Below are positions 8,236 to 64,000 of a stretch of 64,000 nt of DNA, piece after piece. Below the pieces are notes generated by a model. That model saw only the letters and a program-made list of their open reading frames with translations. It did no database searches and was not told the DNA's origin. Made by a program: the position numbers and the translations under genes. Every line of letters starts with the position of its first letter. The stretch's first letter is position 1. The stretch is from Candidatus Omnitrophota bacterium (GTDB lineage: Bacteria; Omnitrophota; Gorgyraeia; Zapsychrales; Aceulaceae), in assembly GCA_028693815.1 (NCBI GenBank), contig JAQUUP010000002.1, forward strand, positions 7,056 to 71,055, read 5' to 3'.

Positions 8236-8237
8236 AT

Positions 8238-8322: not shown

Positions 8323-8325
8323 ATT

Positions 8326-34919: not shown

Positions 34920-35275
34920 AAGAGTATAAGTTTTTCAAAAATGAGCATCTTTTCGATATTGGATTCTTGTTTTTTACATGAATGTATTGACAACGGTTCC
35001 TCAGTATGTTAAAAAAAATATAAAGAAAGTTAACGTAGGTTCTTAAAATTATGATTTTATTCATGAACAAGTACGAAAATTTAGGTATTTCCTTTTCAAG
35101 GATTTTTGTCTTCTTAACAAGGCGGGCAAGTCCTGCTGCTCGAGGTTTGTGGATGGGAACAACGGCTTTAGCGAGTGGGCTTCATTGACATACTATGTCC
35201 ATCAAATAAGATTTTCAAACGAAAGGATTTCATAAAAGAATTATAACTTAAACTTATAATTCTTTTTTTTTGATC

Positions 35276-36289: not shown

Positions 36290-37467
36290 ACCCAATTAAT
36301 GAAACAACTCAACAGGCTCAAGAAAAAGCGATTGCGCTAAGAGTTAGTTTATCTTCTAAAGAGAATCGTTTTATTAATTTCTTTGAGAATGCTACTCCGA
36401 TTGATTGGGAAGATTGGACTTGGCAAATTAGTCATCGTATTAGGACTAAAGAAACTTTGTCTGAGATGCTTGATTTAACTTCTGAAGAAATTCAAGGCAT
36501 CGAAGGGTGTGGGCAAAAACTAACTATGGCAATTCCTCCTTATTTTGCTTCGTTAATCGATCCGAACGATTCTAATTGTCCAATTCGAAGGCAATGTATT
36601 CCTGTCAAAGATGAGTTGATAAAATCTGCCAATGAGCTAGAAGACCCATGCGCAGAAGATAATCATTCTCCTGTGCCAGGGCTTGTACATCGATATCCGG
36701 ATCGAGTTTTGTTTTTAGTTAGCGAAATGTGTGCGATGTATTGCCGTCATTGTACGCGTTCGCGCATGGTTGGAGAAGGAAGGCGCAAGAGAAAAACGTC
36801 TCATTATGAAGATGCATATAATTATATTCGATCAAATAAAAAAATTCGTGATGTTTTAATTTCTGGCGGAGATCCATTGATGCTAAGCGATGAAACGCTC
36901 GAAGACATTATCAAGAACATTAAAGCTATTGCGCATGTGGAGCTTGTCCGCATTGGAACAAGGGTGCCTGTTACGATGCCGCAGCGGATCACTGGCAACT
37001 TAGTGGCTATGCTAAAGAAATATAGTCCTCTTTGGATGAGTATTCATTTTAATCATCCTAAAGAAATTACTAAACGTGTGCGTTTTGCTTGTGAGCTTTT
37101 ATCTGACAATGGTATTCCTTTGGGGAGTCAGACTGTGCTTTTAAAAGGAATTAATGACAAGCCGTATATTATGAAAAAATTAATGCACGAGCTTCTCAAA
37201 ATTCGCGTTCGTCCATATTATATTTATCAATGTGATCCGATTGTCGGGTCTAGCCATTTTCGCACACCAATTTCAACAGGAATTGGCATTATTGATAAAT
37301 TGCGGGGGCATACTACCGGGTACGCAGTTCCCAAGTATGTTATTGACGCGCCCGGCGGCGGTGGCAAAATTCCTATCGAACCGAATGCCATTATTTCTCA
37401 AGATCAGAATACATATGTTTTGCGGAATTTTGCCGGAGAACAATATACTCATCACGATCCACAATAA
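36286..37467 (+). CDS. kamA: Lysine 2,3-aminomutase family radical-SAM enzyme (KamA-like)
   Basis: CAMYCRHCTRSR (CxxxCxxC) plus KamA-family flanks. At 395 aa it is longer than EpmB. ATGA overlap with the ATP-grasp gene. Confidence 0.8.
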   Translation: MNPINETTQQAQEKAIALRVSLSSKENRFINFFENATPIDWEDWTWQISHRIRTKETLSEMLDLTSEEIQGIEGCGQKLTMAIPPYFASLIDPNDSNCPIRRQCIPVKDELIKSANELEDPCAEDNHSPVPGLVHRYPDRVLFLVSEMCAMYCRHCTRSRMVGEGRRKRKTSHYEDAYNYIRSNKKIRDVLISGGDPLMLSDETLEDIIKNIKAIAHVELVRIGTRVPVTMPQRITGNLVAMLKKYSPLWMSIHFNHPKEITKRVRFACELLSDNGIPLGSQTVLLKGINDKPYIMKKLMHELLKIRVRPYYIYQCDPIVGSSHFRTPISTGIGIIDKLRGHTTGYAVPKYVIDAPGGGGKIPIEPNAIISQDQNTYVLRNFAGEQYTHHDPQ

Positions 37468-48959: not shown

Positions 48960-49274
48960 ATGAATAAAAGACTAAATGCTCGCTATGAGTGTCGTGTTCC
49001 TTTGTTGGATGAAAAGAGAGAAGTTCTCTCTAGTAGCCAGACTACTGATATTAGCAAGTCTGGTGTTGGTTTCGTTTCTGCTTGTTTTATCCCCGCGAAT
49101 ACTAATATGATGGTTGAACTTTCGCTGACAAGAGACGGCTCGCCTGTCTTGGTTCAGGGAAGAGTAAAATGGGTTGAAAGAATGAAAAATTCTTCGAATT
49201 TTCGTGTTGGCATGGTTTTTCCAGACATATCACCGCAAGCGGAGTCCCGTATAGAGAATTGTTTTAAAGATTAG
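48960..49274 (+). CDS. PilZ-domain protein (c-di-GMP receptor candidate)
   Basis: RYECR (RxxxR) and DISKSGVGF (DxSxxG) motifs. Confidence 0.65.
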   Translation: MNKRLNARYECRVPLLDEKREVLSSSQTTDISKSGVGFVSACFIPANTNMMVELSLTRDGSPVLVQGRVKWVERMKNSSNFRVGMVFPDISPQAESRIENCFKD

Positions 49275-49321: not shown

Positions 49322-49651
49322 GTGACCAAGGGTTATCAGGATCAACGTCTTTTTGATCGTGTCAATATTCGATTTCCGGTTAGGCTTTCAAGAGAAAATT
49401 CTCATGACTGTTGCAATACGGTTGTTCGAGATGTTTCGGCACAAGGAGTTAGGATCTATTCACCTGAAAAACTCTCTATTTTTGATAGACTTTCTTTATC
49501 TGTTGATATCCCTGGTTCGTCCGAACCTTTAGGGGTTGATGGGCACGTTGTTTGGGCTTCTGGTGAATCAACAAATTCTTGGCAAGCTGGAGTTAAGTTT
49601 GATTACCCGAACTTAATGAAAACAGGAATAATTCTGCACGCCTTCCAGTAG
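49322..49651 (+). CDS. PilZ-domain protein, second copy
   Basis: RLFDR and DVSAQGVRI motifs, with a probable GTG start. Confidence 0.6.
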   Translation: MTKGYQDQRLFDRVNIRFPVRLSRENSHDCCNTVVRDVSAQGVRIYSPEKLSIFDRLSLSVDIPGSSEPLGVDGHVVWASGESTNSWQAGVKFDYPNLMKTGIILHAFQ

Positions 49652-49780
49652 GATCTAAAGCAATACACAATTAATGCAAATAAAAACTTGACCCGCTGAT
49701 ATTTTCCGTGTTAAACTCGTTTTTCTAAAATTGTCATTAAATAATAACACTATTATAGAATTTATAAAATAGGGGAACTT

Positions 49781-52201
49781 ATGAAATACGGTCATTTTTC
49801 TAAAGATAATCTCGAATATATTGTTACCGCGCCAGAAACACCATATCCTTGGATTAATTATTTAACCAACGAAACATATTGTTCGATTATTTCACAATGT
49901 GCAGGTGGATATAGCTTTTATCGTGATTGCCGCACGAATCGTGTTACGCGTTGGCATCCAGAAGATTATCATCTTGATCGACCTGGAAAATATATTTTTG
50001 TTCGTGAAGATAAAAAAGCCTACTCGCTCACATATCAGCCTTTGCGTGCAAAACCATCTTATTATGCTTGTCATCATGGATTAGGCTATACTTCTATCGA
50101 TGCTGTCAATAGAGGATTAAAATCAAATGTCACTTATTTTGTTCCTGAAAAAGATCATTGTGAGGTCTGGATTGCAACGTTAACAAATCAGACAAAAAAG
50201 ACAAAGAACTTGGAAGTGTTTCCTTATGTTGAGTTTTTAATTGGTGATTATCACGAAGAGCTGCGTTATCGCAATATTATGAATCTTTATAATCGCGTTT
50301 GGTTTGATAAAAAGGAAAAAGCGATTTTTGCAAAAAAAACAGCACAGTGGCAAGGAATGAATATTCAGCCGTTTTCAAGCCAAATCTTTTTTGCTTCATC
50401 TTTAAATGTGGTAAGTGTTTGCACGCAAAAAGAAGCTTTTCTCGGTCGTTACAATAATGAAGAAAAACCAGATGCTGTTTTAAAAGAAAATGGATTTAAA
50501 GATTTTCCTGTTTGCTCTGGAGAGGATGGCATCGGATCGTTTAAGCATGTGATAAGCTTGAAACCAGGTGAGACAAAAGAATTTACGATTGTTTTAGGTC
50601 AGACAGAAAAGATGTCGGATATTAAGAGAATTTTAAAGAATTATAAAAAAGTTTCTTACGCTAAAGCACAATTAAAGAAAACTAAGAAAATATGGCAAGA
50701 CAGAATCATAGATAATATTGAGATTAAAACACCAGACAAAGATTTTGATACAATGGCCAACGTTTGGTTGAAATATCAAACATATATTTGTAATTTATGG
50801 TCAAGATCGCCAAGTTTTTTTCATGAAGGCTCTGGAGGCCGAGGGTATCGTGATTCTTGTCAAGATTCCGAAGCGATTGTTTCGATTAATTCAGAATTGG
50901 CTAAAAATAAGATTTTTAAGATTGCTTCTTTAATCCGACGAGACGGCACGTCTGCTCCTGGCTGGTCTGAAACAGACGGGCCACATAAATTTTTGCCTAA
51001 TAAAGATCATCAGATTTGGCTGACAACAACTGTTTGCGCATATGTTAAAGAAACAGGAGACAAAGCGATTCTTTCGACTAAATTGCCATATCTTAAGGAT
51101 CGATGGATCAAGGGATGGAAAATTGATACTAGTTGGAAAGGTGGGGCAAAGCAAGATGGTGAAGGAACATTGCTTGAGCATTTAGAGGCAAATTTGACAT
51201 TTTGTTTTAATGATGTTGGTGTTAAAGGATTCCCAAAGATTGGTCATGCTGATTGGAATGATGCGATTGATGCTGCTGGTATCAAGCATAAAGGCGAGAG
51301 CGTTTGGTTGGCACAGGCTTTGGTTCGATCGCTTAGAATATTGGCGGAACTTTGTGATTTTATTGGTGATCAGAATAAGAAAAATAAATACTTAAAGATG
51401 GCTGATGTTATGGATGCGCGCGTTAATGAAAAAGGATGGGATGGTCAGTGGTATGTGCGCGGATTTGATGACAATGGCCAAGTTTATGGAACGAAAAAAG
51501 ATAAAGAAGGAAAGATTTTTTTGAATGCGCAATCTTGGGCGGTTTTGTCGGGTATTGCTAAAAAAGATCGTCTTAAAAAAGTTTTAGATTCTGTCGACAA
51601 ACATTTAAATGGGCCGCATGGATTGGCTTTATTTGCGCCTGCTTATTCGTTTTGGGTCAAGCGGTTGGGACGCATTAGCATGTTTTCAGAAGGGACAAAA
51701 GAAAATGCTGCTGTTTTTTGTCATGCGGCAACATTTATGGCTGTGGCGTATGCAATGAGTGGTTGTGGTGACAAGGCTTATGAAGCGATTAAAAAGATTA
51801 TGCCAAATAAACAAGAAGATATGGAGCTGTACCGAACAGAGCCATATGTTTTTGCTGAATATTTAGTAGGTCCTCAAAATCCTTATCGATACGGGGAAGG
51901 TGCTTTTACTTGGATTACTGGAACAGCTGGATGGAATTTTATGGCTGCCACCGAATGGATCCTTGGTGTCCGACGAGATTTTAATGGACTTCGTATTGAT
52001 CCGAGCATCCCTTGTTCATGGAAAAAGTGTTTTGTTCGTCGTCCTTTTAGGGGTAGTATTTATGAAATCGAAATTCAAAACCTGAACGGCAAGCAAAGCG
52101 GAGTAAAACAAATTACTGTTGATGGAAAAGAAATAGAAGGAAATATTCTTCCTGTTTTCGCCGACAAAAAGACACATAAAGTTATTGTCACGCTCGGCTA
52201 A
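49781..52201 (+). CDS. GH94 disaccharide phosphorylase (cellobiose/chitobiose phosphorylase family)
   Basis: The N-terminus MKYGHFSKDNLEYIVTAPETPYPWINYL...AGGYSFYRD matches the conserved GH94 N-terminus, and the ~800 aa length fits. Confidence 0.8.
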   Translation: MKYGHFSKDNLEYIVTAPETPYPWINYLTNETYCSIISQCAGGYSFYRDCRTNRVTRWHPEDYHLDRPGKYIFVREDKKAYSLTYQPLRAKPSYYACHHGLGYTSIDAVNRGLKSNVTYFVPEKDHCEVWIATLTNQTKKTKNLEVFPYVEFLIGDYHEELRYRNIMNLYNRVWFDKKEKAIFAKKTAQWQGMNIQPFSSQIFFASSLNVVSVCTQKEAFLGRYNNEEKPDAVLKENGFKDFPVCSGEDGIGSFKHVISLKPGETKEFTIVLGQTEKMSDIKRILKNYKKVSYAKAQLKKTKKIWQDRIIDNIEIKTPDKDFDTMANVWLKYQTYICNLWSRSPSFFHEGSGGRGYRDSCQDSEAIVSINSELAKNKIFKIASLIRRDGTSAPGWSETDGPHKFLPNKDHQIWLTTTVCAYVKETGDKAILSTKLPYLKDRWIKGWKIDTSWKGGAKQDGEGTLLEHLEANLTFCFNDVGVKGFPKIGHADWNDAIDAAGIKHKGESVWLAQALVRSLRILAELCDFIGDQNKKNKYLKMADVMDARVNEKGWDGQWYVRGFDDNGQVYGTKKDKEGKIFLNAQSWAVLSGIAKKDRLKKVLDSVDKHLNGPHGLALFAPAYSFWVKRLGRISMFSEGTKENAAVFCHAATFMAVAYAMSGCGDKAYEAIKKIMPNKQEDMELYRTEPYVFAEYLVGPQNPYRYGEGAFTWITGTAGWNFMAATEWILGVRRDFNGLRIDPSIPCSWKKCFVRRPFRGSIYEIEIQNLNGKQSGVKQITVDGKEIEGNILPVFADKKTHKVIVTLG

Positions 52202-52233
52202 GAAAATTGTTAAAAATAAATAATTTTAGATCG

Positions 52234-55200
52234 CTAGAATCTTTTTTTGTAGAAAAGACGAAAGATGTTTTGTGTATCGATTGTAGGCGTTGTGCTTCCC
52301 ATGTATGGCGTTGAAGACGCATAGGCGCTATAAATTGACGGGCCTACACCATAGCTGAAACTTAGCTTACTATCTTCATCAAATAAATACTGTGCTTCAA
52401 AAAAGATGTTGTGATGATCTTTCATCACGATGTCTTCACTTCCGTTATAAACAACATCGTTAACATTTTTTAAGCGACTCCAAGTATATTTTGCGAAGAA
52501 CCCAAGTTTTTTTGTTGCAAGATAAGAAGCCGCAAGGCCAATATGATTCATGTTGTCATCAATTGGGCCTGCGTATTCGTATGGATTGCGGGCAAAGTCT
52601 AGATAGATATTCCATTGATCGTTAGGTGTGATTTCAATTCCTGTTCTAAAAATGTGGTGATATTCGTAAGGCGGCAAAGGAAAATTTCCTTGATCATAAA
52701 GATATGAATAAGTTCTTCTGTAGATGTTGTCATAGCTTTCGTATGTTGTTGTGCCGATATCGTTTAGAATCCCGCGAGGAAAGTTGTCGACTCCGGCAGC
52801 AAAATCATTGGTGTGTTCCCATGCTCCGTTCCAAGAAAGATATTTTGAGAAATCGTATTTTAATCCAATGGAGGTCGTGTATCCGCTTGGGTCGACCCCG
52901 TCTTCGATGGCGTCATTTAAAACAGGTTCACCGTTTGCATCTGTAATGTAAGGATCAACCCCTCCGGTTGTTTTTGGCAGATGGTGTCCAATAAGTAAGA
53001 GGCGTGTTTCTAACTTATCGGTTGCTTGATATGACCATTCCGTGCGTGCGACGGTTTCGATATACTTATTTGAGCTCGTGGCATGTGCGTTTCGGATATC
53101 TGTTAGTCCTTTTAATCTTCCAGACCAGAAAGAAGAATCTGTTCGCCAATTAATCACGTAACGACCATAGTCAATGCTGTTTCCAATACGAAACGGTTCG
53201 ATGTCATAATAAGAAAGGCCAGGGTAATTCATTGGATCGCGAAATGTGATGTGTCGACTCCAAAATTGATCGTCTTTGGTTTCGCGATAATTTGCTAGGG
53301 TTGATTCAAATCCGTTATCCATTCTGGTCATGCGTAATTGTGTTTTAAAAAATGTTTCTTCGTCTTTTTCTGGTTGTATTGCAAGATAGTTAGTGTCTGG
53401 AGATTCGATACCGTTAGTGGTGCCAACAATAGAAAGATCGTAAGCGTTGCCATCAGTACGTGTATTGTAATTTTCAAAAGAGCGATCTTGTTCAAGGAAA
53501 GAAAAAGCATATTCTGCTTTTATTTGAAGGCCAGGATTAATAAGCCATCCGGCATCGTAGCCACTGACGATATTGTAGGCATCAATATTACCGTTAATAA
53601 GGCCGAGATGAATATTTTCAATATTGCCAATATAGAAATTGTCGGAAACATTTTTTTGAATACGGAAACTCCCAGGAATTGCATCAAATTCGTCGTAGTC
53701 TTGCCATAGCGTTTTAGGTGAAGCGACAACCATATCAATCTGAGTGTCGTCTGTTGTCGTGTTAAGAGAGAACCCTCGTAGCGCTGTTAAGCGCTTGCCA
53801 TCACTATCTCGGGTTTGGAATGCTAAGGCATCGTTCCATCGACCTTTTGTAAAATCTTGAGGACTGTTCCATATATTGATGTGTCCAGGAGTCCAGTTAG
53901 CCAACCAAGGACTTTCTTCCCACCAGATATGGTTATTCGATAATCCCAAAGGATCATTAGAGCTTAAAGCTTTGTTTTCAAATCCGTAAGGGAAAAATTG
54001 AATCTTAGTTTCGTCTGTCGGTTGATAATCAACCCATAATTCTCTTAGAGGCCAGAAATTTTTCTTGACGTGCATGTCTGGATAAGTGAAGAAATTCACA
54101 TTTTTAGAAGTGAACATTCCTCCGGGGACTGTAGAGTTACTGACTTTAAGTTCGGGAAGCGCGATGATGTCACCGTAATCAAGTGTAAAAAGATTGCTGT
54201 TGACTGTGTAGCCCGTATTGCCCCAAGAGAGAAATTGGAGGTCAATGGTATCGACTAAGGCGTATCCTCTCAAAGTAAGCTTGTCAGTTTTTCCGGTAAA
54301 ACTCCATGGGTCAATAGTGATATTCGCGTGGTAAGAAAGCTTGCTATCTTTTGGATTAACGTCAATATCAAAGCTAAGCCGGTCGTAAATGCCTGGGTCA
54401 TAAGTATTCATTCTTTTGTTAAGCTGATCTGGTGAAATTAAACGCCAGTTTTTTTCATTTAAATCAAAATTGGCTCTGTTCCAAAGTAGATCATTGTTTT
54501 TAGCATCGTATCCAAGCCCAATACGAACTTCACCGCTAACATCTACATCCGCTTCTATTGTTTTATGTATTTTTTTTGAAGCAGCAGGATTGGGCGCTTC
54601 TTTAGATTCAGATACAGAAAGTTCTTTGGATTTGGATGAGCTATCAAGAATAGCAGTGGGTTTTGATTCGGTTATTGTTTTATTATTTCTAACACTAGCG
54701 GTATTCTTTTCTTCAGGCTTAGATAAATTATTTTTTTTAGGTTCAGATGAGACAACGGGGTCAGAAGTGGTTTTTGATATTTTTTCTGTCTTATTTGTTT
54801 TTATTTCATTGTTAGGAGCCGAAGAGCTTTTTGCTTGATATTTTCTTTCAATAGCATCGAGTTCTTTTGCTATTTTTTCTTCGATTGTTTCAATTTTTTT
54901 AGGTTTGGCAGGTTCCTTAGGTTTGGTTGCTTGTTCGGGTTTATCAAGTTGCTTTGGCGCATCAGGCTGCTTAAGTTTGTAAGAAGCTTGTTTTACAAAG
55001 CCACCTTTTTGTTCCTCAAAATCTTTAGACCATTTAATAAGTTCAACATATGCTCGAGCTTTTTGGCTAGCGGGATTGATTGCCAAGATTCTTTGAAATT
55101 CGATTAAAGCCTCATTGTATTGTCCTTTTTCGTAAAGCATGATAGCAAAATCAGTATCTACTGCAGAATCTGAAGCCAAGGTAAGAGAAGGTGAAAAAAC

Positions 55201-55266
55201 AAGAAATACCCACAATGCTATTGCACAGCAAGGCAATAGTATCATGCGCTTATGAAACGTTTTCAA
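52234..55266 (-). CDS. Large outer-membrane protein: signal peptide, short TPR-like segment, K/P/E-rich linker, ~750-aa predicted beta-barrel ending in Phe
   Basis: Cleavable N-terminus, a low-complexity KPKEPAKPKK region, alternating aromatic/Gly beta-strand-like C-terminal region, and an ...LFYKKRF terminus. Confidence 0.5.
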   Translation of the reverse strand: MKTFHKRMILLPCCAIALWVFLVFSPSLTLASDSAVDTDFAIMLYEKGQYNEALIEFQRILAINPASQKARAYVELIKWSKDFEEQKGGFVKQASYKLKQPDAPKQLDKPEQATKPKEPAKPKKIETIEEKIAKELDAIERKYQAKSSSAPNNEIKTNKTEKISKTTSDPVVSSEPKKNNLSKPEEKNTASVRNNKTITESKPTAILDSSSKSKELSVSESKEAPNPAASKKIHKTIEADVDVSGEVRIGLGYDAKNNDLLWNRANFDLNEKNWRLISPDQLNKRMNTYDPGIYDRLSFDIDVNPKDSKLSYHANITIDPWSFTGKTDKLTLRGYALVDTIDLQFLSWGNTGYTVNSNLFTLDYGDIIALPELKVSNSTVPGGMFTSKNVNFFTYPDMHVKKNFWPLRELWVDYQPTDETKIQFFPYGFENKALSSNDPLGLSNNHIWWEESPWLANWTPGHINIWNSPQDFTKGRWNDALAFQTRDSDGKRLTALRGFSLNTTTDDTQIDMVVASPKTLWQDYDEFDAIPGSFRIQKNVSDNFYIGNIENIHLGLINGNIDAYNIVSGYDAGWLINPGLQIKAEYAFSFLEQDRSFENYNTRTDGNAYDLSIVGTTNGIESPDTNYLAIQPEKDEETFFKTQLRMTRMDNGFESTLANYRETKDDQFWSRHITFRDPMNYPGLSYYDIEPFRIGNSIDYGRYVINWRTDSSFWSGRLKGLTDIRNAHATSSNKYIETVARTEWSYQATDKLETRLLLIGHHLPKTTGGVDPYITDANGEPVLNDAIEDGVDPSGYTTSIGLKYDFSKYLSWNGAWEHTNDFAAGVDNFPRGILNDIGTTTYESYDNIYRRTYSYLYDQGNFPLPPYEYHHIFRTGIEITPNDQWNIYLDFARNPYEYAGPIDDNMNHIGLAASYLATKKLGFFAKYTWSRLKNVNDVVYNGSEDIVMKDHHNIFFEAQYLFDEDSKLSFSYGVGPSIYSAYASSTPYMGSTTPTIDTQNIFRLFYKKRF

Positions 55267-55428
55267 AATAGTCTCCTTGAAAAAGTGAAAGTCATCATTT
55301 TTATTAATATATATAATAAAATGATTTGTTGAATAAGTATAGCATATAATTTCTTAGAAAATCAAGGTATCTCAAGTAAATTATTTAAAATAGATAATTT
55401 CTTGATTTTTCTTGTGTCGATTCTGATT

Positions 55429-55457
55429 TTGACAAAATAAAATCACTATGTTATACT
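55429..55457 (+). promoter_or_regulatory. Sigma70-type promoter for the sugar ABC operon
   Basis: TTGACA (55429-55434), a 17-nt spacer, then TATACT (55452-55457). An upstream 10-11-bp inverted repeat AGAAAATCAAG / CTTGATTTTTCT lies at ~55355 and ~55401. Confidence 0.45.
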
Positions 55458-55522
55458 GCCATTTCAATTAATTTGCACATTAAATTGACGATTGCTTAAA
55501 TAATGCAGAGGCAAAAATTTTA

Positions 55523-56818
55523 ATGAGAAAAATTTTTTTATTTCTTTTTTGTGTTGCTTTTTTCTTAGCAGGCTGTTCGCAGAGAAACCAAGCAAATGTT
55601 GTTAATGTTTGGCATTGGATGATTGATCGCCAAGAAACCTTCCTAGAGCTTGCTCAACAATATAAAGAACAAACAGGTATTGAAGTTAAGTTTGAACTAT
55701 ATGCTCCATCCGAGACGTATTCAAGAAAAATTATAGCTGCGGCGCAAGCACGTGTATTACCAGACATTTACGGCATTTTAGGTGACAAAAAGAAGCTCGC
55801 TTCTTTTATCAATAGTGGATTTGTGGCTGATTTAACCAAAGACTTTGAGGGCAATGGTGGAGCTTGGGAAAAAAGTATTTTTTCAAAAGCGCTAGATTCG
55901 AATCGTTTTGAAGAAGGAAATGTTTATAGTGTTAATTCAGGTATTTATGGAGTCCCGATTGATGTTATGAATATCCAAATGCTATACAACAAAGATCTTC
56001 TTGCTAAAGCTGGCATTAAGCGATATCCAAAAACTTTTACAGAATTTATGGAAGATATTGCTGCGCTTAACCGCATCGGAATTGAAGGTCTTATTTCTGG
56101 ATGGGGAGAAACTTGGATGGTTGACTGTTTTGCGTCTAACTATGCGTTTAATATTATGGGTGAAGAAAAAGTGATGGCAACATACAAAGGGGACGTTCCT
56201 TATACGGACGAAGATTGGATTAAAGTATTTACATTATTTAAAGATTTAAGAGAAAATAATGCTTTGGCTCAGGGTATTGTAACTAAAGGTAATAAGTATG
56301 CTGAGCAAGATTTTGCTTTAGGGCGTAGTGCATTTGCTTTTAATGGATCTTGGTGTGTCAATGTTTATAATGAGATGGATCAAAATTTAAATTATGGCGT
56401 GATGTTACCGCCTGTAGTTAACGAAGAAAGGCCGATGCAGATTTGGGGTGGAGCAGGGTCTTCTTTTGTTGTGAATGATAGCTCTAAGAATAAACAGCAA
56501 GCTATTAATTTTCTAAAATGGCTTACGGCTAAAGAGCAGCAGGCTTTTTTATCTAAAAAAACAAAAAATTTACCAGCTAATCGTTATGCGTTATCATCGA
56601 TTCCAGAAATTCTTTCGCAATTTGCAAGTGCAATGGACAAAACCACGCATCCTTCTATTTGGAAGTATAATGAGGACGCGATGGTTCAAGAGACGTTTGA
56701 TAGAGGGATTCAGTCAATTATTATTGGCGAAAAAACGCCTGAAGAAGTGGCCCAAGCTGTTCAAGCGATGAAAGTTCGCGAGATGGAAAAAGCTCAAAAG
56801 AGAATGAAGAGGCAATGA
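55523..56818 (+). CDS. ABC transporter sugar-binding lipoprotein (family 1 solute-binding protein)
   Basis: Lipobox FLAGCSQ, with size and composition typical of an oligosaccharide-binding protein. First gene of the permease operon. Confidence 0.8.
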   Translation: MRKIFLFLFCVAFFLAGCSQRNQANVVNVWHWMIDRQETFLELAQQYKEQTGIEVKFELYAPSETYSRKIIAAAQARVLPDIYGILGDKKKLASFINSGFVADLTKDFEGNGGAWEKSIFSKALDSNRFEEGNVYSVNSGIYGVPIDVMNIQMLYNKDLLAKAGIKRYPKTFTEFMEDIAALNRIGIEGLISGWGETWMVDCFASNYAFNIMGEEKVMATYKGDVPYTDEDWIKVFTLFKDLRENNALAQGIVTKGNKYAEQDFALGRSAFAFNGSWCVNVYNEMDQNLNYGVMLPPVVNEERPMQIWGGAGSSFVVNDSSKNKQQAINFLKWLTAKEQQAFLSKKTKNLPANRYALSSIPEILSQFASAMDKTTHPSIWKYNEDAMVQETFDRGIQSIIIGEKTPEEVAQAVQAMKVREMEKAQKRMKRQ

Positions 56819-57738
56819 AAAATAAGACGTTTGATAAGTTTTCATTTTTAAAGTTTAAAGATGCTACTGAAAACTATTTTTTTATTTTTCCTGCGCTTGC
56901 GATTTTTGCGGTTTTTTATATTTATCCATTTTTTGAGATTTTTAACTTATCTTTGCATGAGTGGAATGGAATTAGTTTAACACGTGATTTTATTGGCATA
57001 AGCAATTTTAAAGAAATTATGCAAGACAAAGTGTGGTGGTCATCGATGTGGCATGCAGGATACATCACGCTTATTGCATTAACGCTTCAAAATATGTTGG
57101 CTTTTGCCCTTGCTTTGTCATGTGATCGCGATATTCGTATGCGCAAGTTTTATCGTGTTGTTTTTTATTTGCCACCTGTTTTGTCTGAGATCGTTGTTGG
57201 TTTAATTTGGCAATGGATTTTAAATTCTGGCATGCAATCTGGTCAGCCGATTGGTCTTTTGAATTATTTCTTAACTAAGGTTCATCTGAATCATCTTGTT
57301 CATCATTGGCTTTCTGATCCTAAGACAGCCTTGACATGTATTGCTGTTGTTCATAGTTGGAAAGGATTTGGTTGGGGTTTTATTATTTTATTAGCAGGTT
57401 TGCAAACAATTGACCGCCAGCTTTATGAAGCCGCTTATGTTGATGGGGCAGGCGCATTCAGCACGTTTAAAAATATTACAGTTCCGATGATGATTCCAGT
57501 TTTTGTGATGGTTATGATTCTGACGATTTTAGGGTCGATGCAGGTTTTTGTTTTGGTGCTTTCGATGGTTGGTCAGGGACTAGTGTATCACACAGAGGTC
57601 CCGGTTACCCGCATTTTAAGTTCGATGACAGGGGCGAGTCGTTTTGGATATGCTTGTGCGCAGGGTATTGTTTTTGGTTTGATTTTAATGATGAGTGCGT
57701 TTATACTCAATAAGATATCAAAGAAAGCTAAGCAATAA
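56815..57738 (+). CDS. ABC sugar permease (MalF/UgpA type)
   Basis: 6-TM with the EAA-loop region AAYVDGAGAFSTFKNITVP. Confidence 0.8.
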   Translation: MKNKTFDKFSFLKFKDATENYFFIFPALAIFAVFYIYPFFEIFNLSLHEWNGISLTRDFIGISNFKEIMQDKVWWSSMWHAGYITLIALTLQNMLAFALALSCDRDIRMRKFYRVVFYLPPVLSEIVVGLIWQWILNSGMQSGQPIGLLNYFLTKVHLNHLVHHWLSDPKTALTCIAVVHSWKGFGWGFIILLAGLQTIDRQLYEAAYVDGAGAFSTFKNITVPMMIPVFVMVMILTILGSMQVFVLVLSMVGQGLVYHTEVPVTRILSSMTGASRFGYACAQGIVFGLILMMSAFILNKISKKAKQ

Positions 57739-57756
57739 TAAAAAAGAGGGTTTAGT

Positions 57757-58602
57757 TTGATTATTAATCGTTACAAGGCAATTAAAGTTATTGGTTCAAT
57801 CTTTACGCATACATTTTTAATGGCTGTGGCCATGACTTGCTTGTTTCCTCTTTTTTGGATGTTTCGTTCGGCGTTAATGACAAATCAGACCATATTTGTC
57901 GATAAAGGACTTATTCCAAGTTCTGTTCATTTTCAAAATTTTTATTTAGCTTGGACTAAAGGCGGCTTTGGAATGTATTTTGTGAACAGCGTTATTTATA
58001 CTGTGTGTGTTGTCTTTGGCATTGTTCTTGTTTCATCTTTAGCAGCTTATGCATTTTCACGGCTAAAATTTCCGGGAAAAAATTTCTTTTTTTATATGTT
58101 TTTAGCTGCTATGATGATTCCCTTACCTGGAAGCTTTGTTCCGCTGTATGTTTTAATGAATAAACTTCATTTGGCGAATACGCGTATTGGGTATATTTTA
58201 TGCATGATTAACGTCGGGCTTTCGTTAAGCATTTATCTGCTCAAAACGTTTTTTGATAAAATGCCATCGGATTTAGAAGATGCTGCGCGTATGGATGGAT
58301 GCTCAAAGCTTGGCATATGGCTGCACGTGGCTTTGCCTTTGGCACGTCCAGCAATTGCTGTTATTGTTATTTTTAACACGCTCAATGTTTGGAATGAGTA
58401 CGTTCTAGCCATGTTGCTTTTAAATGATAAATCGCTTATGCCTTTGCAACGTGGTTTGATGGTTTTTCAAGGGACGCATAGTGTAGATTATCCGCTTTTG
58501 ATGGCAGGCTTGACGATTACGGTTGCGCCTGTTATTTTAGTGTATCTCTTTATGCAAAAACATATTATAAAAGGTCTATCGTCAGGAGCAATTGTCGGAT
58601 GA
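57757..58602 (+). CDS. ABC sugar permease (MalG/UgpE type)
   Basis: EAA loop DLEDAARMDGCSKLGIWLHVALP. Confidence 0.8.
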   Translation: MIINRYKAIKVIGSIFTHTFLMAVAMTCLFPLFWMFRSALMTNQTIFVDKGLIPSSVHFQNFYLAWTKGGFGMYFVNSVIYTVCVVFGIVLVSSLAAYAFSRLKFPGKNFFFYMFLAAMMIPLPGSFVPLYVLMNKLHLANTRIGYILCMINVGLSLSIYLLKTFFDKMPSDLEDAARMDGCSKLGIWLHVALPLARPAIAVIVIFNTLNVWNEYVLAMLLLNDKSLMPLQRGLMVFQGTHSVDYPLLMAGLTITVAPVILVYLFMQKHIIKGLSSGAIVG

Positions 58603-60929
58603 AAAAAATATTATTTTCAAATCGTTTGTCTATCATTTTTCAAGTATTCGTTTTTTTTATTTTTTGTTTAATTTCTACGCATAGTTTGGCGCAGATAGTA
58701 AGTTCTCAAGATTATGTTTTAAAAGCATGGGAAGCTTCTTCGAGTGGAAATTTTGAAGAAATTGAGCGACTTGCCACCGAATGTATTCAAGTGTATAGAG
58801 AGGAGGCAAAACAGCAGCAAGCGATATTGAAAACTTTTCCTTTAAAAGGAACGGAAGAAGAATATAGCGTGCTTAATGGTGTAGCCACATGCTTGTTTAT
58901 TTACGCAGAAGCTTTGATGAACAAAGGCGAGACTGAAAAAGCAATGGATCTTTTTAGGCAAGTAATTTCTGAATATTCTTGGGCGCAATCTTGGGATCCT
59001 AGAGGTTGGTATTGGTCAGTTGCTGAAAAAAGTCAAGCAAGTTTAGATAAGCTGGAAGGGAAAGAACAAGAAAAAGAAGAAATTGTAATTGATCGTGGTC
59101 CTGAAACAATGCCAACGATTGCTTTTCCTGGCACTGAGGATGTAATTGATTATGAGAAGTATGGTCATTTTGAGGATATTGGAACAAAAGAATATCGGTA
59201 TGTTGCGGATGATCCTGCCGGATTGATGAAAGCTATTGGCGAAGGAATTTATCCAAATACCAGTGGTGTTTTAAAGGATCCGACGTATCAAGAATTTCAA
59301 AAAGAGGGTGCCCTTTCTAGAAGTCATTGGGATTATGTTCAAACCGATGATCTTCAAAAAGCTTTTTATAAGTGGGCGACTGCATCTGAGCCACAGGGTG
59401 TTAAGCTTTTTTATTTAGGTCTTGTTTTTGAAAAAGCTGGCATGATATATGAAGCGCTTAAAGCATATCGTGCGATTCAAATTCATTTTCCAGCTTCCAT
59501 AGGAAAAACGTATTGGAACACTCCTTGGTATCCAGGTCAAACCGCTATTGCAAAAATTCGGCATATTATTAAAATACATCCAGAGTTAGATTTAAAATAT
59601 GAGGGCGCAAAGATTCAAGTTATTAACGGATTTGATAATGATATCGCCAATGATGTTGTTTTGACTTGGCCTGGAGTTTTACAAAAGAAAACATTTTGGG
59701 ATAAAATGATCGAAAGAATTAAATCATTTCTTCCTTCTCTGATGAACAAATATCGAATTAAGGATATTAAGAAAACAATTGGCGGGCCAAAAGTTCGACT
59801 TGTTCAATCTGATGAGACCGAACATTGGCAACTTCTTGTTGATGATAAGCCATTTATGATTCAAGCGGTTACTTATCAAGCCACGAAAGTTGGGCAAAGT
59901 CCTGATAAAGGGACATTGGCTGATTGGGCCGTAGAAGATACTAATAATAATGGCCTCGCGGATGGTCCATACGATTCTTGGGTGGATAAGAATTTAAATA
60001 ATGTACAAGATGAAGACGAGCCTGTTGTTGGTGATTTTCAGCTTATGAAAGATATGGGTGTTAATACGATTCGTGTGTACAAACAACCTTATAATCCTAA
60101 CAAAGAGCTTCTTCGAAAAATGTATGAAGATTATGGCATTATGGTGATTATGGGGGATTTTTTAGGAAAATATGCTCTGGGTTCTGGCGCGACATGGTTT
60201 GAAGGAACAGATTATGAAAATCCAGAACATAAGAAGAATATGATGGCATCTGTTCGCAAGATGGTTGAAGAATTTAAAGATGAGCCATATGTTTTAATGT
60301 GGCTTTTAGGTAATGAAAATAATTATGGTTTAGGCTGTAACGCTGATAAAAAACCGTATGCGTATTATGAGTTTATTGAAGAAGTTGCACAAATGATTAA
60401 GAGCATTGATAGGAGTCATCCGGTTGCAATATCAAATGGAGATACGCTTTATTTAGATATTTTTGCAGAAAATTGCCCATCAATTGATGCATTTGCTGCC
60501 AATGCTTATCGAGGTGATTATGGATTTGGTTCTTTTTGGGAGCAAGTTTTTGGTGCTTCTGGAAAGGCTGCTTTTATTACCGAATATGGATGTCCGGCTT
60601 ATGCCAATCATTTAACTCGTGAACAAGCAGAGCAAGCCCAAGCCGATTATCATCAAGGAGCTTGGAGTGATATTATGTTGAATTCAGCAGGAACAAAAGA
60701 GGGCGCGGGTAATGCTATTGGGGGAGTTGTTTTTCAATGGATAGATGAGTGGTGGAAGAATTATGAGCCATCGGTTCATGATAAAACGGCAGGGGCTATT
60801 GGTCCTTTTCCAGATGGATATATGTATGAAGAATGGTTTGGCTTAACAGGGCAAGGAGATGGCAAAAATAGCCCATTTTTGCGCCATTTGCGTAAATCAT
60901 ACGATTATTATAAAAGTGTCTGGAATTGA
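58599..60929 (+). CDS. Secreted clan GH-A glycoside hydrolase (GH2/GH5-like TIM barrel) with an N-terminal novel helical domain
   Basis: Signal peptide. The N-terminal ~140 aa are homologous to the repeat units of the 61028 protein. The catalytic region has VNTIRVY, LGNENNYG (acid/base NE) and ITEYGCP (nucleophile E). Confidence 0.6.
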   Translation: MKKILFSNRLSIIFQVFVFFIFCLISTHSLAQIVSSQDYVLKAWEASSSGNFEEIERLATECIQVYREEAKQQQAILKTFPLKGTEEEYSVLNGVATCLFIYAEALMNKGETEKAMDLFRQVISEYSWAQSWDPRGWYWSVAEKSQASLDKLEGKEQEKEEIVIDRGPETMPTIAFPGTEDVIDYEKYGHFEDIGTKEYRYVADDPAGLMKAIGEGIYPNTSGVLKDPTYQEFQKEGALSRSHWDYVQTDDLQKAFYKWATASEPQGVKLFYLGLVFEKAGMIYEALKAYRAIQIHFPASIGKTYWNTPWYPGQTAIAKIRHIIKIHPELDLKYEGAKIQVINGFDNDIANDVVLTWPGVLQKKTFWDKMIERIKSFLPSLMNKYRIKDIKKTIGGPKVRLVQSDETEHWQLLVDDKPFMIQAVTYQATKVGQSPDKGTLADWAVEDTNNNGLADGPYDSWVDKNLNNVQDEDEPVVGDFQLMKDMGVNTIRVYKQPYNPNKELLRKMYEDYGIMVIMGDFLGKYALGSGATWFEGTDYENPEHKKNMMASVRKMVEEFKDEPYVLMWLLGNENNYGLGCNADKKPYAYYEFIEEVAQMIKSIDRSHPVAISNGDTLYLDIFAENCPSIDAFAANAYRGDYGFGSFWEQVFGASGKAAFITEYGCPAYANHLTREQAEQAQADYHQGAWSDIMLNSAGTKEGAGNAIGGVVFQWIDEWWKNYEPSVHDKTAGAIGPFPDGYMYEEWFGLTGQGDGKNSPFLRHLRKSYDYYKSVWN

Positions 60930-61027
60930 TGAAATTTTCGGCAAAACCGAAAAAAGTATGCTATACTTCATTTAAATTGGTTGAGCATAGTCATATTAAA
61001 CTATAAAGTAAAAAGGGAGGATAAGTT

Positions 61028-61882
61028 ATGAGAAAAATTTTAATTTGTGCCTTGTTAGTTCTGGGCCTTGGGTTTGTTAGCCCTGCGATTTCATCGGCCT
61101 ATAATTATGGTGATTATCGATCAGTCACACTAGCAACAAAGGCTTGGGATGCACTTTCAAAAGGGGATATTGAAGCTGTTTTGGCATACACAAATAAGTG
61201 CGTTGAGCTTTATGGGGCGCAAGCTAGTAAAATGCAAGCATCGTTAAGCGGTTATGTTGAAGGTCCAAAGGAAGAGATTTTTAAGAAATGGGCTTTAAAT
61301 GATGTTGCAGTATGTCTTTTTGTTCAAGCAGAAGCTTATCGTAAAGCAAATATGATGGATGAGGCTAAAGAAGCATATCGAAAAATTATTGATAATTTTT
61401 CTTATGGTCAATGTTGGGATAATGGTGGATGGTTCTGGAAGCCGGCTGAAGCTGCGCAAGAAAAATTAGATGCAATCGAATCTGGCTTGGATGCAGATTT
61501 TAGCGATTCGACGTCTTCAGGTCTTACAGGTAAAGCTTGGGAAGCCTATGCAAACGATGATCTAGAAACTGTTTTGTTCTATACAAATAAATGTATGAAA
61601 TTGTATGGGGAAAAAGCAAAGGAGATGCAGGCTTCTTTGACAGAATTTCCATGGGAAACAAACGAAGAAATTTTTTCATATTGGGCTCTTAATGATGTTG
61701 GCGCTTGTCTTTTTATTCAGGGAGAAGCTTATAAAAAAGCCGGAATGCTTGAAGAGGCTAAAGCAGCGTTTAATGAGTTGATTAAAGATTATTATTTTGC
61801 ACAATGCTGGGATCCACAAGGATGGTTTTGGAAGCCGGCTGAAGCTGCAGAGCAAAGACTTCTTGAAATTGAAGAAATGTAA
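61028..61882 (+). CDS. Secreted protein made of two tandem copies of a novel ~140-aa domain
   Basis: Signal peptide. Repeat 1 (KAWDALSKGDIEAVLAYTNKC...GQCWDNGGWFWKPAEAAQEKL) and repeat 2 (KAWEAYANDDLETVLFYTNKC...AQCWDPQGWFWKPAEAAEQRL) are near-identical, with DNA-level identity in places (GGAAGCCGGCTGAAGCTGC). Confidence 0.5.
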   Translation: MRKILICALLVLGLGFVSPAISSAYNYGDYRSVTLATKAWDALSKGDIEAVLAYTNKCVELYGAQASKMQASLSGYVEGPKEEIFKKWALNDVAVCLFVQAEAYRKANMMDEAKEAYRKIIDNFSYGQCWDNGGWFWKPAEAAQEKLDAIESGLDADFSDSTSSGLTGKAWEAYANDDLETVLFYTNKCMKLYGEKAKEMQASLTEFPWETNEEIFSYWALNDVGACLFIQGEAYKKAGMLEEAKAAFNELIKDYYFAQCWDPQGWFWKPAEAAEQRLLEIEEM

Positions 61883-61950
61883 TTATTGTTTTAGAGTAAT
61901 CGAAGCAAATTCCATGGCAAAGATGTAAAAAGTTTTTTGAAAGGGGACGT

Positions 61951-62586
61951 ATGAGCAAAATACTCAAGGTCCTTTTTCTGCTTATGTTTGTTGTTGTCGC
62001 CGGATGTAGTCAGTCAGGCGCTCCTGTAGCAGAAAAAGAAACGCAAATACCTCAGGCTAATAATTCTTTTAATCCGTTTCCGATTTATACCAACATTGGA
62101 TCTCGGGACAATCATTTTGTTCCCTCTGGTTTTATGCCAGATGGGGCATGCATTGAATTTTCTGATCGATGGATAGAAAATTGTCATTCTGAAAAAACGT
62201 GTATTCGAGCGGATTATGATGTTGAATGCTCAAGACAAGGTGAGCGGTGGGTTGGTGTTTATTGGCAAAATCCAGCTAACAATTGGGGCAATCGAAAAGG
62301 TGGTTTTGATTTAAGCGGGGCAACAAAATTAACGTTTTGGGCTAAAGGAGAAAACGGTGGGGAGCGCATCGAAGAGTTCAAAATGGGTGGCATTACCGGA
62401 GATTATCCAGACACAGATACAGCATTTATTGGTCCTGTCGTTTTGACGCCAGAATGGAAACAGTACACTATTGATTTGCGAGGAAAAGACCTTTCATATG
62501 TTAGCGGAGGTTTTTCCTGGTCAACTAATGTTGACGTTAATCCTGAGAATTGTACATTTTATTTAGATGACATTCGATACGAATAA
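61951..62586 (+). CDS. Lipoprotein with C-terminal beta-sandwich, carbohydrate-binding-module-like domain
   Basis: Lipobox VVAGCSQ, with C-terminal WVGVYWQNPANNWG...TFYLDDIRYE resembling a CBM fold. Confidence 0.4.
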   Translation: MSKILKVLFLLMFVVVAGCSQSGAPVAEKETQIPQANNSFNPFPIYTNIGSRDNHFVPSGFMPDGACIEFSDRWIENCHSEKTCIRADYDVECSRQGERWVGVYWQNPANNWGNRKGGFDLSGATKLTFWAKGENGGERIEEFKMGGITGDYPDTDTAFIGPVVLTPEWKQYTIDLRGKDLSYVSGGFSWSTNVDVNPENCTFYLDDIRYE

Positions 62587-62611
62587 GTTTTTAGAAAACA
62601 ATATTTAAAAA

Positions 62612-62645
62612 AAGGGGCAACAAATGTTGCCCCTTTTTATTTTGT
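62612..62645 (+). terminator. Rho-independent terminator of the glycan locus
   Basis: AAAGGGGCAACAAATGTTGCCCCTTTTTATTTT. A second hairpin GAGAGAAATTTT-CTAT-AAAAATTTCTCTC follows at 62653-62681. Confidence 0.6.
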
Positions 62646-62895: not shown

Positions 62896-64000
62896 ATGTC
62901 CAAAGCAGCAAAACAAGTTATTTTTATTTTATGTTTGCTTTTAGCCGTAAGCGTTTTTGTCGCTCTGTCGACATTTAATCAGAAATCTGCTTTTGAAGAA
63001 GAAAATGCTCAGTTGCAAGGACAGGTCGTCGAGAATAAGAAAAAAGCAGCAGATTATGAGCAAAAACATAAAGCGGCTTTAGACGAGTCGGCTGAGCTTA
63101 AAAGAAAAGCTGATGCACTTTTAGCTCAGAAAAAAGATTTAGAAGATGAGATCGATGCTTTTTCTGGTCGGATGGAAGACCTAAAGTCACGCGTTGAAGA
63201 GGCTACTCAAGAAAAAGAAGAATGGCGTTCTCGCTATCAAGCAGTGCAAAGAGAGCGAGATGATGCGATTGCGAAATTGCAAGTAGTGCAAAAACAACAA
63301 GCTGCTGCTGCAACAAGAGAGCCCGTCGTTGTTCGTGGTCCTGAGGTTGGCTCTATGAATGAAAAAGACACTGAGCAGCATTGGGCAAATATTTTAAAAG
63401 AAAGAACAGAGCTTGAAATTCGAATCGGTAAACTCGAGTCTGAGCTAGATCAAAGTGCCTTAGACATTGAAGAACTCCGGAAAAAGAATTCTGATTTAGA
63501 TCTTGAAATTGGACATCTGAACAATTCACGAGAGGAAGCAGAAAGAAAATTAACATATAATAATGAAATTATTGATAACTTGTCGATTGCTCTTGTTCGC
63601 GAAAAGAACGATAAGAAATATATTAACGAACGATTAGAAGCAATTAAAGAGGAAAACTTGATGTTGCGCGCACAAGTGAAACAGCTTAGCAACGTTAAGA
63701 TTGCACTTGAAAAAAGTGTGTCAAAAGTTCAAGAGGAAAAGGCGAAAGTTGAAAAAAGACTGGCTGAAACTGAAATTATTGTTCAGGATCGTATCGATGA
63801 AGTCATGGATATTAAGATGAATATTGATGAAAGATTGCGTAAAGATACGTTTTTAGATGATAAGAATGAAATTATGTTGCCACCAATTATTGTTAATGGT
63901 TCTTCCTCATCGAATAATGAAGAGTCTTCAGAGGCTCCATTTGTTTTGATGTCGTCTGGGGAAATTATTAGTGTGAATGATGATAATAATTTTGTTATTA
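62896..64000 (+). CDS. Membrane-anchored coiled-coil protein (3' partial, runs off the window end)
   Basis: Checked by eye: ATG at 62896, an N-terminal TM helix (VIFILCLLLAVSVFVAL), then a heptad-rich E/K/Q/L frame open to base 64000. Not in the ORF track because it has no stop codon. Confidence 0.45.
   Translation, partial: MSKAAKQVIFILCLLLAVSVFVALSTFNQKSAFEEENAQLQGQVVENKKKAADYEQKHKAALDESAELKRKADALLAQKKDLEDEIDAFSGRMEDLKSRVEEATQEKEEWRSRYQAVQRERDDAIAKLQVVQKQQAAAATREPVVVRGPEVGSMNEKDTEQHWANILKERTELEIRIGKLESELDQSALDIEELRKKNSDLDLEIGHLNNSREEAERKLTYNNEIIDNLSIALVREKNDKKYINERLEAIKEENLMLRAQVKQLSNVKIALEKSVSKVQEEKAKVEKRLAETEIIVQDRIDEVMDIKMNIDERLRKDTFLDDKNEIMLPPIIVNGSSSSNNEESSEAPFVLMSSGEIISVNDDNNFVI

Follow-up and report, generated by a model that had tools for sequence, protein, structure and literature searches.

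The 64,000-nucleotide stretch analysed here (the window) belongs to contig JAQUUP010000002.1 of a Candidatus Omnitrophota bacterium, and coordinates are positions in it unless another locus is named (L and P numbers denote the loci and proteins compared). We focus on a glycan-utilisation cluster, first delimited at 49781-62645, and within it on the gene for a 1010-aa outer-membrane protein (OMP). Overall, the OMP represents a real, unnamed and phylum-wide family of predicted giant beta-barrels, and its link to beta-glucan uptake is suggestive but unproven. The cluster and its surroundings contain the following features:

48960-49274 and 49322-49651, plus strand: two small single-domain PilZ genes of the cyclic di-GMP (c-di-GMP) receptor type (Pfam PilZ on the L002 and L003 orthologues; orthology by tblastn)
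49781-52201, plus strand: glycoside hydrolase family 94 (GH94) disaccharide phosphorylase, cellobiose-phosphorylase-like (Pfam; PDB 3qde)
52234-55266, minus strand: OMP gene (open reading frame (ORF), AlphaFold, Foldseek, family alignment)
55523-56818, plus strand: sugar-binding lipoprotein (SBP) of an ATP-binding cassette (ABC) importer (SBP_bac_8, E 8.9e-36; SBP_bac_1, E 1.8e-30; lipobox FLAGC)
56815-57738 and 57757-58602, plus strand: two ABC permeases of the MalF/MalG-UgpA/UgpE type (BPD_transp_1; NCBIfam UgpA/UgpE/MalG-like)
58599-60929, plus strand: secreted 776-aa GH158-like enzyme with a signal peptide, TPR_6-type module(s) and a clan GH-A TIM barrel (Pfam, PDB)
61028-61882, plus strand: secreted 284-aa protein with two TPR_6-containing modules (Pfam, module comparison)
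61951-62586, plus strand: 211-aa lipoprotein with lipobox VVAGC (ORF)
62609-62638, plus strand: intrinsic-terminator-like hairpin with a 13-bp stem and a trailing run of T, at the end of the ABC/GH158-like operon (sequence scan)
62896-64000 (window end), plus strand: 5' part (368 of 423 codons) of the gene for cc403, a membrane-anchored coiled-coil protein (tblastn, P0135)

The OMP gene is convergent with the GH94 gene, with a 32-bp gap between them, and divergent from the ABC operon. ORF calling, Pfam and NCBIfam recovered in place every gene listed in the preliminary description of this DNA, which was also right that the two permeases and the SBP come without an ATPase gene: we found no ABC ATPase gene within the cluster. 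The bounds it drew enclose the listed genes, while the conserved cluster is wider, including the PilZ pair upstream and the cc403 gene past the terminator at 62609-62638.

The OMP had been proposed to consist of a signal peptide, a TPR-like segment, a linker, a large beta-rich region and a terminal phenylalanine. Sequence, structure model and family alignment bear out this layout, which we delimited as follows:

Residues 1-31: signal peptide, read from the sequence as MKTFHKRMILLPCCAIALWVFLVFSPSLTLA|SD
Residues 36-89 (nt 55161-55000): three TPR helices (residues 39-89 in the AlphaFold model; weak TPR_2 match, E 0.0038)
Residues 90-237 (nt 54999-54556): disordered Lys/Ser/Glu/Pro linker of ~150 residues, predicted local distance difference test (pLDDT) 25-35
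Residues 238-1010 (nt 54555-52237): predicted barrel of ~30 strands (AlphaFold, Foldseek)

The signal peptide has K, H, K and R in its n-region, a hydrophobic core and a TLA|SD junction, and residues 2-24 form a helix in the model. The TPR segment amounts to only ~1.5 repeats, and the TPR_2 match recurs in 40 of 47 homologues. The linker is rich in lysine (20%), serine (13%), glutamate (11%) and proline (9%) and contains a single helix at residues 128-147. The AlphaFold model, built with a 47-sequence alignment, has a mean pLDDT of 78 and a predicted template-modelling score (pTM) of 0.72; pLDDT reaches ~90 in the beta-rich region (residues 241-1010, ~770 residues). Its DSSP string contains 30 long strands; almost every periplasmic turn has only 2-6 residues, and the two termini lie on the periplasmic side. 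In the predicted model, this pattern is the signature of a transmembrane beta-meander, from which closure of the barrel and the exact strand count are inferred. The terminal residue is a phenylalanine that is nearly invariant across the family alignment. The amphipathicity of the strands lends modest support, with an alternating hydrophobicity of 1.95 versus 1.22 (sd 0.88) in control segments. A beta-helix or an S-layer fold had been named as the outcomes that would speak against a barrel, and both the model and Foldseek instead give a large outer-membrane barrel. Its predicted ~30 strands also agree with the earlier remark that the barrel is much larger than the PgaA/BcsC type, which has 16.

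Conservation is unevenly distributed over this predicted barrel. The outward loops at residues 255-295, 319-406, 429-494 and 650-701 have conservation scores of 0.60-0.74, are almost free of gaps and carry the signature motifs of the family, and both the strands (0.58) and the periplasmic turns (mostly 0.34-0.53) score lower. Because the outward loops are more conserved than strands and turns, they probably fold into the lumen or form an ordered cap with a conserved function. Such conservation would be expected for a specific constriction and not for the exposed loops of a porin. As for the length of the protein, an AGGAG lies 6 nt before its TTG start (55266), and this is conserved in L001 and L013, so 1010 aa is the right length and the database version (P0001, 1003 aa) was probably called too short.

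We searched for known relatives of the barrel by sequence and by structure. The barrel of the OMP has no Pfam, NCBIfam or PDB-sequence profile match, and the TPR was the only domain found in the protein. Pfam was also run singly on the 47 homologues at E ≤1, where absences refer to the 25 most frequently matched families listed. Twelve of the 47 match OMP_b-brl, a generic profile, a few match Porin_2, Porin_4 or BBP2, and one weakly matches SlpA_C (E 0.01). Neither in the OMP nor among the families listed for the homologues did we find Plug, TonB_dep_Rec or CarboxypepD_reg (Pfam and NCBIfam), nor, with Pfam, BCSC_C or PgaA-type domains, LamB, OprB, SLH, OmpA_C or another peptidoglycan-binding domain; among the families listed for the 47 members, OstA_N, LptD, POTRA, Omp85 and DUF560 also gave no signal, and the OMP itself has no Pfam match to OstA_N or LptD. 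When the barrel domain was queried with phmmer against 1.84 billion representative proteins, 161 matches resulted, 100 of them at E ≤1e-30. The 150 of these that were listed look like family members or fragments and provide no bridge to a known family.

In a Foldseek search against the PDB, the 50 best matches were all outer-membrane barrels of 22-26 strands (E ~1e-8 to 1e-10), belonging to TonB-dependent transporters, LptD and MtrB. With TM-scores of 0.2-0.39 and identities of 7-11%, the structural similarity is to this class and not to one family, and Foldseek found no PDB structure with the same fold at TM ≥0.5. The OMP fails the defining sequence and domain tests of every family compared, and we would classify it as a new family within the outer-membrane barrel channels. 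No published description of it was found in the literature searched, which did not include the primary Velamenicoccus paper (Kizina et al. 2022).

We next determined how widespread the family is. A word-indexed search returned more than 326 homologues, nearly all of them from Omnitrophota or unlabelled metagenome proteins and named 'hypothetical' or 'TPR repeat protein'. Those nearest to the OMP are from Omnitrophota, Candidatus Aceula lacicola among them. Scanning one genome per GTDB species yielded 235 relatives. The best 80 of these loci, on which all locus counts below are based, are spread over 80 genomes, one in each, and the complete Ca. Velamenicoccus archaeovorus genome is one of these. 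Family members share ~40% identity across the phylum and many invariant residues. As large searches gave few matches beyond Omnitrophota and metagenome proteins, the family is sharply bounded; it is phylum-wide in Omnitrophota and occurs once per genome among the loci examined. The preliminary description had suggested an unrecognised class of outer-membrane glycan channel. The family is indeed unnamed, and the OMP is not special to the window locus, as the family extends through the phylum.

The part before the barrel is more variable. Mostly it consists of TPR and linker, and the variants include members with nothing in this position, with a Pom-like domain or with a 1900-residue beta-helix/Ig-like extension. 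P0231 (2721 aa) has beta-helix/NosD, CarboxypepD_reg and SdrD_B domains before the barrel in an autotransporter-like layout, and in P0212 (1090 aa) a Pom porin domain, as in Protochlamydia, takes this place. In P0202 (1490 aa, MBI4431992.1), a GH116 domain is fused in frame to a signal peptide and barrel, without TPR.

To place the OMP in its genomic context, we called ORFs in 88 loci, clustered them and annotated recurrent clusters, though not every one; the summary counts are over the 80 genomes. A sugar gene lies in the examined flanks of the OMP gene in 51 of the 80 genomes and within two genes of it in 46. Four arrangements stand out. Arrangement A, that of the window clade, reads LacI-coiled-coil-lipoprotein-TPR_6 protein-GH158-like-permeases-SBP and is divergent from the OMP gene, which on its other side converges on GH94, and two PilZ genes come after GH94. 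Arrangement B, found in three separate clades, has SBP-permeases-GH158-like-lipoprotein-(TPR protein)-OMP-ROK-coiled-coil-LacI on one strand, and arrangement C consists of OMP-(ROK)-coiled-coil-LacI. In arrangement D, seen in 25 genomes, the OMP gene converges on one for a GH161 beta-1,3-glucan phosphorylase (PDB 9qqk, E 1e-234), an activity established for this family (PMC6484121). Some links are operon-tight: the OMP and ROK genes are 0-5 bp apart in four genomes (L045, L054, L085 and L066), and a GH116 gene overlaps the OMP start in L007. Judging from their sequences, all enzymes involved (GH94, GH161, GH158-like and GH116) would act on beta-glucans.

A neighbour-joining tree of the barrel showed that the context types map onto clades. 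Genome counts therefore overstate independence, and the number of distinct arrangements counts instead. For sugar genes there are at least six arrangements, in at least five clades; envelope-lipid genes have about three, and so do c-di-GMP genes. The glycan-catabolic context proposed for the OMP thus has firmer support than a single locus could give, since its gene is flanked by sugar genes in 51 of the 80 genomes, in several unrelated arrangements.

Published expression data are available for the V. archaeovorus orthologue (BU251_03395/QAT16845.1). It was detected at 10.3 transcripts per million (TPM) and, in three metaproteomes, at 14.3, 0 and 12.0 parts per million (ppm) by relative intensity-based absolute quantification (riBAQ), in a dataset where many V. 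archaeovorus proteins reach 100-10000 ppm riBAQ (PMC12583861 Table S1). The homologue is thus made at the protein level, yet it is not a bulk outer-membrane protein, and this low abundance fits a specialised channel better than a bulk porin. A role as a major abundant porin, which we also considered, is weakened by the 12-14 ppm in V. archaeovorus.

Our preferred reading, held tentatively, is that the OMP is a substrate-specific outer-membrane channel for the uptake of beta-glucan oligosaccharides. It is based on the repeated association with differing beta-glucan genes, the conserved loops and the low abundance; the associated genes encode GH94, GH161, GH158-like and GH116 enzymes, the ABC importer and ROK/LacI regulators. 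Genes for known sugar porins behave similarly: lamB and chiP lie in, or are regulated with, their uptake regulons, and chiP is under the ROK-family repressor NagC. Here we infer the channel function, substrate, direction of transport and partners of a protein whose barrel and strand number are themselves predicted. In the proposed mechanism, the OMP would have a Sec signal peptide and a small TPR module in the periplasm, which a flexible tether of 150 residues joins to a ~30-strand barrel. The secreted GH158-like glucanase would make beta-glucan oligosaccharides outside the cell or at its surface, and the OMP would admit the laminari- or cello-oligosaccharides into the periplasm. There, the lipoprotein SBP and the two-permease ABC importer would take them up, and cytoplasmic phosphorylases would cleave them, GH94 in the window genome and GH161 in other clades. 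The TPR module may serve as a docking site for other periplasmic proteins, for example cc403 or those with TPR_6 modules. We are somewhat more hesitant about the wider proposal that Omnitrophota as such use a phylum-specific, TonB- and SusC-independent outer-membrane gate, a ~30-strand barrel with a tethered TPR module, for beta-glucan oligosaccharide import.

Several observations weigh against this reading. Around 29 of the 80 genomes have no sugar neighbour. Since the OMP gene is a vertically inherited core gene, one per genome among the loci examined, much of its synteny with sugar genes would reflect clade-wide inheritance and is not independent evidence. The adjacency to GH94 in the window itself appears to be a lineage-specific rearrangement, as comparison with L026, L027 and the P0025 contig shows that the OMP gene changed its place inside a conserved block; in these three the order is Ddl-like, LAM-like (D-Ala-D-Ala-ligase-like and lysine-2,3-aminomutase-like), OMP, purH, folC, mnmE; in L026 and L027, two PilZ genes and GH94 follow further along, with GH94 eight genes from the OMP gene. 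Envelope-lipid neighbours also recur. PgsA-PlsY-small ORF-OMP occurs in 18 genomes, where the upstream order in clade D is lepA-lepB-pgsA-plsY, and Lnt-LpxL-like-OMP in seven, one C clade having prfB-secA-lnt-lpxL-like upstream; a gene for a DUF748 (AsmA-like) protein starts at the OMP stop codon (0 bp) in L029 and L050. Velamenicoccia carry a response regulator-OMP-HD-GYP-MshEN operon instead of sugar genes, with gaps of 2-26 bp (L005, L006, L046 and others), and PilZ genes lie directly upstream of the OMP gene in L047 and L058, besides the pairs in the window clade and L026/L027. In another group the neighbours are unrelated genes, among them rho, rlmI, an ABC-F gene, ribF, clpB and recG. 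A channel leaves both the very large barrel and these lipid and c-di-GMP neighbourhoods unexplained, and we know of no sugar porin that comes anywhere near 30 strands.

Regulation in the window adds to these objections. We identified three promoter-like sites:

49688-49717, plus strand: GH94 promoter-like site, TTGACC-18-TAAACT
55336-55365, minus strand: the OMP gene's own promoter-like site, TTGATT-18-TATACT with an upstream TG
55429-55457, plus strand: promoter-like site of the ABC/GH158-like operon, TTGACA-17-TATACT, 11 of 12 positions

The orthologous intergenic regions in L001, L003, L009 and L011-L014 conserve the OMP block, and those in L001, L003, L009 and L012-L014 also the ABC operon site, ~65 bp away, the extracted L011 stretch ending short of it. 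With a promoter-like site of its own and on the opposite strand, the OMP gene is not co-transcribed with the sugar genes of the window. Inspection of orthologous intergenic regions, a scan for cre-like patterns and a palindrome scan gave no consistent operator common to the OMP and sugar promoters. A separate observation is an identical GC-rich palindrome, CTGCCTGCCGGCAGGCAG, in three AT-rich Omnitrophota genomes (L012 9586-9603, L076 9315-9332 and L081 8113-8130). It is intergenic in L012 and L076, a close variant is intergenic in L044, and it is absent from the window.

The envelope-lipid neighbours suggest a different function, namely a housekeeping machine of envelope biogenesis: a lineage-specific translocon or insertase for outer-membrane lipids, lipopolysaccharide (LPS) or lipoproteins, like LptD, TamA or Slam, whose sugar synteny is merely inherited. 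Such a machine would be expected to occur in one copy per genome, as among the 80 best loci, to retain ~40% identity, many invariant residues and conserved loops across a phylum, and to be made in the low amounts seen in V. archaeovorus. Three different envelope-lipid neighbourhoods (PgsA-PlsY, Lnt-LpxL-like and DUF748), the presence of LptD among the best Foldseek matches and a SurA-like gene three genes downstream of the OMP gene in L008 are also consistent with it. Yet each lipid neighbourhood is found in one clade, against the at least six sugar arrangements in at least five clades, and the operon-tight links to the ROK-type regulator and GH116 are hard to explain in this way. The likeness to LptD is no better than that to TonB-dependent transporters and MtrB (TM 0.2-0.39), and the 47 members are without OstA_N, LptD, POTRA, Omp85 or DUF560 among their listed families. 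We therefore consider an envelope-biogenesis machine unlikely, if less so than the two alternatives that follow.

Two other functions can be considered for a barrel of this size. SlpA of Deinococcus is a 30-strand barrel, and a general diffusion pore and/or outer-membrane tether like SlpA or OmpM would share with the OMP an anchor module, a long spacer and ~30 strands, as well as its phylum-wide occurrence once per genome among the loci examined; the weak match of one homologue to SlpA_C and those of a few to Porin_2, Porin_4 or BBP2 point the same way. This is improbable in view of the 12-14 ppm riBAQ in V. archaeovorus, against 100-10000 ppm for many of its other proteins, the absence of SLH, OmpA_C and other peptidoglycan-binding domains by Pfam, a loop conservation that is atypical for exposed general porins, and the absence of SlpA from the 50 best Foldseek matches. 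Marginally less probable still is a c-di-GMP-controlled pore for the export of a beta-glucan exopolysaccharide or adhesin, a giant analogue of BcsC, PgaA or PelB: it would account for the TPR followed by a barrel in one polypeptide, the c-di-GMP genes nearby (PilZ; response regulator-OMP-HD-GYP-MshEN) and the beta-helix 'passenger' of P0231, but the annotated recurrent neighbour clusters of the 80 genomes, which are not all of the clusters, include no glycosyltransferase or synthase, the nearby sugar genes are for catabolism and uptake (ABC importer, phosphorylases, repressors), exporters have 7-19 TPR repeats against ~1.5 here, and Pfam gives no BCSC_C or PgaA-type match.

The neighbouring proteins were characterised further. 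Both defining domains of GH94 are present in the phosphorylase of the window (catalytic domain, E 5.5e-106; supersandwich, E 9.8e-65), and among solved structures it is closest to the cellobiose phosphorylase of Clostridium thermocellum (3qde, E 4.6e-145). The GH158-like enzyme matches Glyco_hydro_2_C (E 1.4e-14), and its best solved relative is the GH158 structure 9oro (E 4.4e-13), aligned over residues 535-664 only; GH158 is a family of endo-beta-1,3-glucanases. The 284-aa protein, earlier labelled a novel-domain protein, consists of two tandem copies of a ~125-residue TPR_6-containing helical module, and the N-terminus of the GH158-like enzyme carries one or two further copies (40% identity, E 6e-24). 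Pfam recognises a single TPR_6 repeat per copy. A conserved motif closes the module and reads AQCWDPQGWFWKPAE in copy two of the 284-aa protein. For the 211-aa lipoprotein there is neither a Pfam family nor a PDB relative, only a weak NCBIfam 'choice-of-anchor J' match (E 0.005), so its earlier label 'CBM-like' is at most putative; its gene co-occurs with the OMP gene in 12 of the 80 genomes. None of the genes in the window cluster is SusD-like by Pfam or NCBIfam.

The cc403 protein is 68% identical to its L009 orthologue (tblastn), and the full-length P0135 (locus tag PHY73_01010, labelled 'Candidatus Omnitrophica bacterium' at NCBI) is identical to it over the part inside the window. Its gene lies in the examined flanks of the OMP gene in 20 of the 80 genomes, and in 19 of these a LacI regulator gene is next. 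By analogy with these sister genomes only, a LacI gene would be expected past the window end. Besides a membrane anchor, the AlphaFold model of cc403 has two very long helices, at residues 3-140 and 156-317, and at the C-terminus a small beta-barrel. The only Foldseek matches, all marginal (E ~1e-3), were the crown domain of F1-ATPase and the C-terminal domain of FlgT. We considered cc403 as an energy coupler like TonB or TolA and found no support for this, because the C-terminal domain is, in the model, a small barrel with only marginal FlgT-like similarity.

Further features were noted elsewhere in the window. At 35270-37467 (plus strand) there is a D-Ala-D-Ala-ligase-like ATP-grasp gene and, after it, one for a lysine-2,3-aminomutase-like radical SAM protein. 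L026 and the P0025 contig have this pair immediately upstream of the OMP gene, and L027 has it close upstream. In the window it is followed, in the slot that the OMP gene occupies in those three, by a 1520-aa ORF (37680-42242, plus strand) with no Pfam match at E ≤1e-5. The ORFs at 14484-16175 (minus strand, 563 aa) and 21012-22340 (plus strand, 442 aa) are likewise without a Pfam match. V/A-type ATPase genes for the catalytic A and B subunits and an I-subunit-like gene are found at 5178-10706 (plus strand), a TPR-DUF3857-transglutaminase protein is encoded at 24230-26617, and an MgtE_N/CBS gene lies beside an Nramp gene at 32365-34919.

Omnitrophota are a phylum of the PVC group whose members are abundant, ultra-small and almost entirely uncultured. 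Genome surveys suggest that many of them ferment sugars (PMC10066038), and the literature searched does not state how sugars cross their outer membrane. The OMP family, phylum-wide and without a Pfam or NCBIfam model, is a concrete candidate for this passage. If the strand count holds, it is among the largest single-chain outer-membrane barrels, with LptD, MtrB, SlpA and SprA. If it is a glycan channel, small sugar porins and SusC/TonB transporters would be joined by a third design for taking up glycans across the outer membrane, and if it imports, it would be a new class of glycan importer among the largest single-chain barrels devoted to nutrient uptake. An envelope-biogenesis machine would matter equally for the envelope of Omnitrophota, and either way the family merits a family definition and a structure.

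Lastly, we compared the OMP with known outer-membrane systems. The closest functional analogy, drawn from synteny and loop conservation, would be with sugar porins (LamB/ScrY, ChiP, CymA and OprB), whose genes also lie in or beside clusters for ABC sugar uptake and catabolism with sugar-responsive repressors, and whose conserved loops, as expected for the OMP, fold inward as a constriction. Known sugar porins have 14-18 strands in 400-550 aa and no periplasmic TPR or tether, and LamB, OprB and ChiP are trimeric barrels of 16-18 strands. Unlike them, the OMP is a phylum-wide core gene product with ~30 predicted strands and has no sequence or Pfam similarity to them. BcsC, PgaA, PelB and AlgK/AlgE share with the OMP a signal peptide, an N-terminal TPR and a C-terminal barrel in one polypeptide, with c-di-GMP genes nearby. 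In contrast to these exporters, the OMP has three TPR helices on a disordered 150-residue tether, ~30 strands against 16-18, a catabolic and uptake context without a synthase or glycosyltransferase among the annotated recurrent neighbours, and no Pfam match to them.

SusC and TonB-dependent transporters resemble the OMP in their length of ~1000 aa, their large barrel and their place in polysaccharide-utilisation clusters, and TonB-dependent transporters are its best Foldseek matches (PirA, PfeA, Cir and BtuB; E ~1e-9 to 1e-10). They differ in that the OMP has no Plug match, no SusD-like neighbour in the window cluster and ~30 predicted strands versus 22, and TM-scores are 0.2-0.35. Like LptD, the 26-strand LPS translocon, the OMP has a very large barrel, occurs once per genome, is of low abundance and has lipid genes nearby in some clades; Foldseek matched 5iv9, 4q35 and 4n4r at target-normalised TM-scores of up to 0.38. 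It differs from LptD in having TPR and a disordered tether in place of the OstA_N jellyroll, and no LptE-like neighbour was identified. Like SlpA and OmpM, it has a periplasmic module at the N-terminus, then a long spacer and a giant ~30-strand barrel, but TPR and a disordered linker replace SLH and coiled coil, abundance in V. archaeovorus is low and the only sequence link is the one marginal SlpA_C match. Taken together, the OMP would work most like a sugar porin in its regulon, looks most like the TPR-barrel exporters, and has its best fold matches in TonB-dependent transporters, LptD and MtrB.

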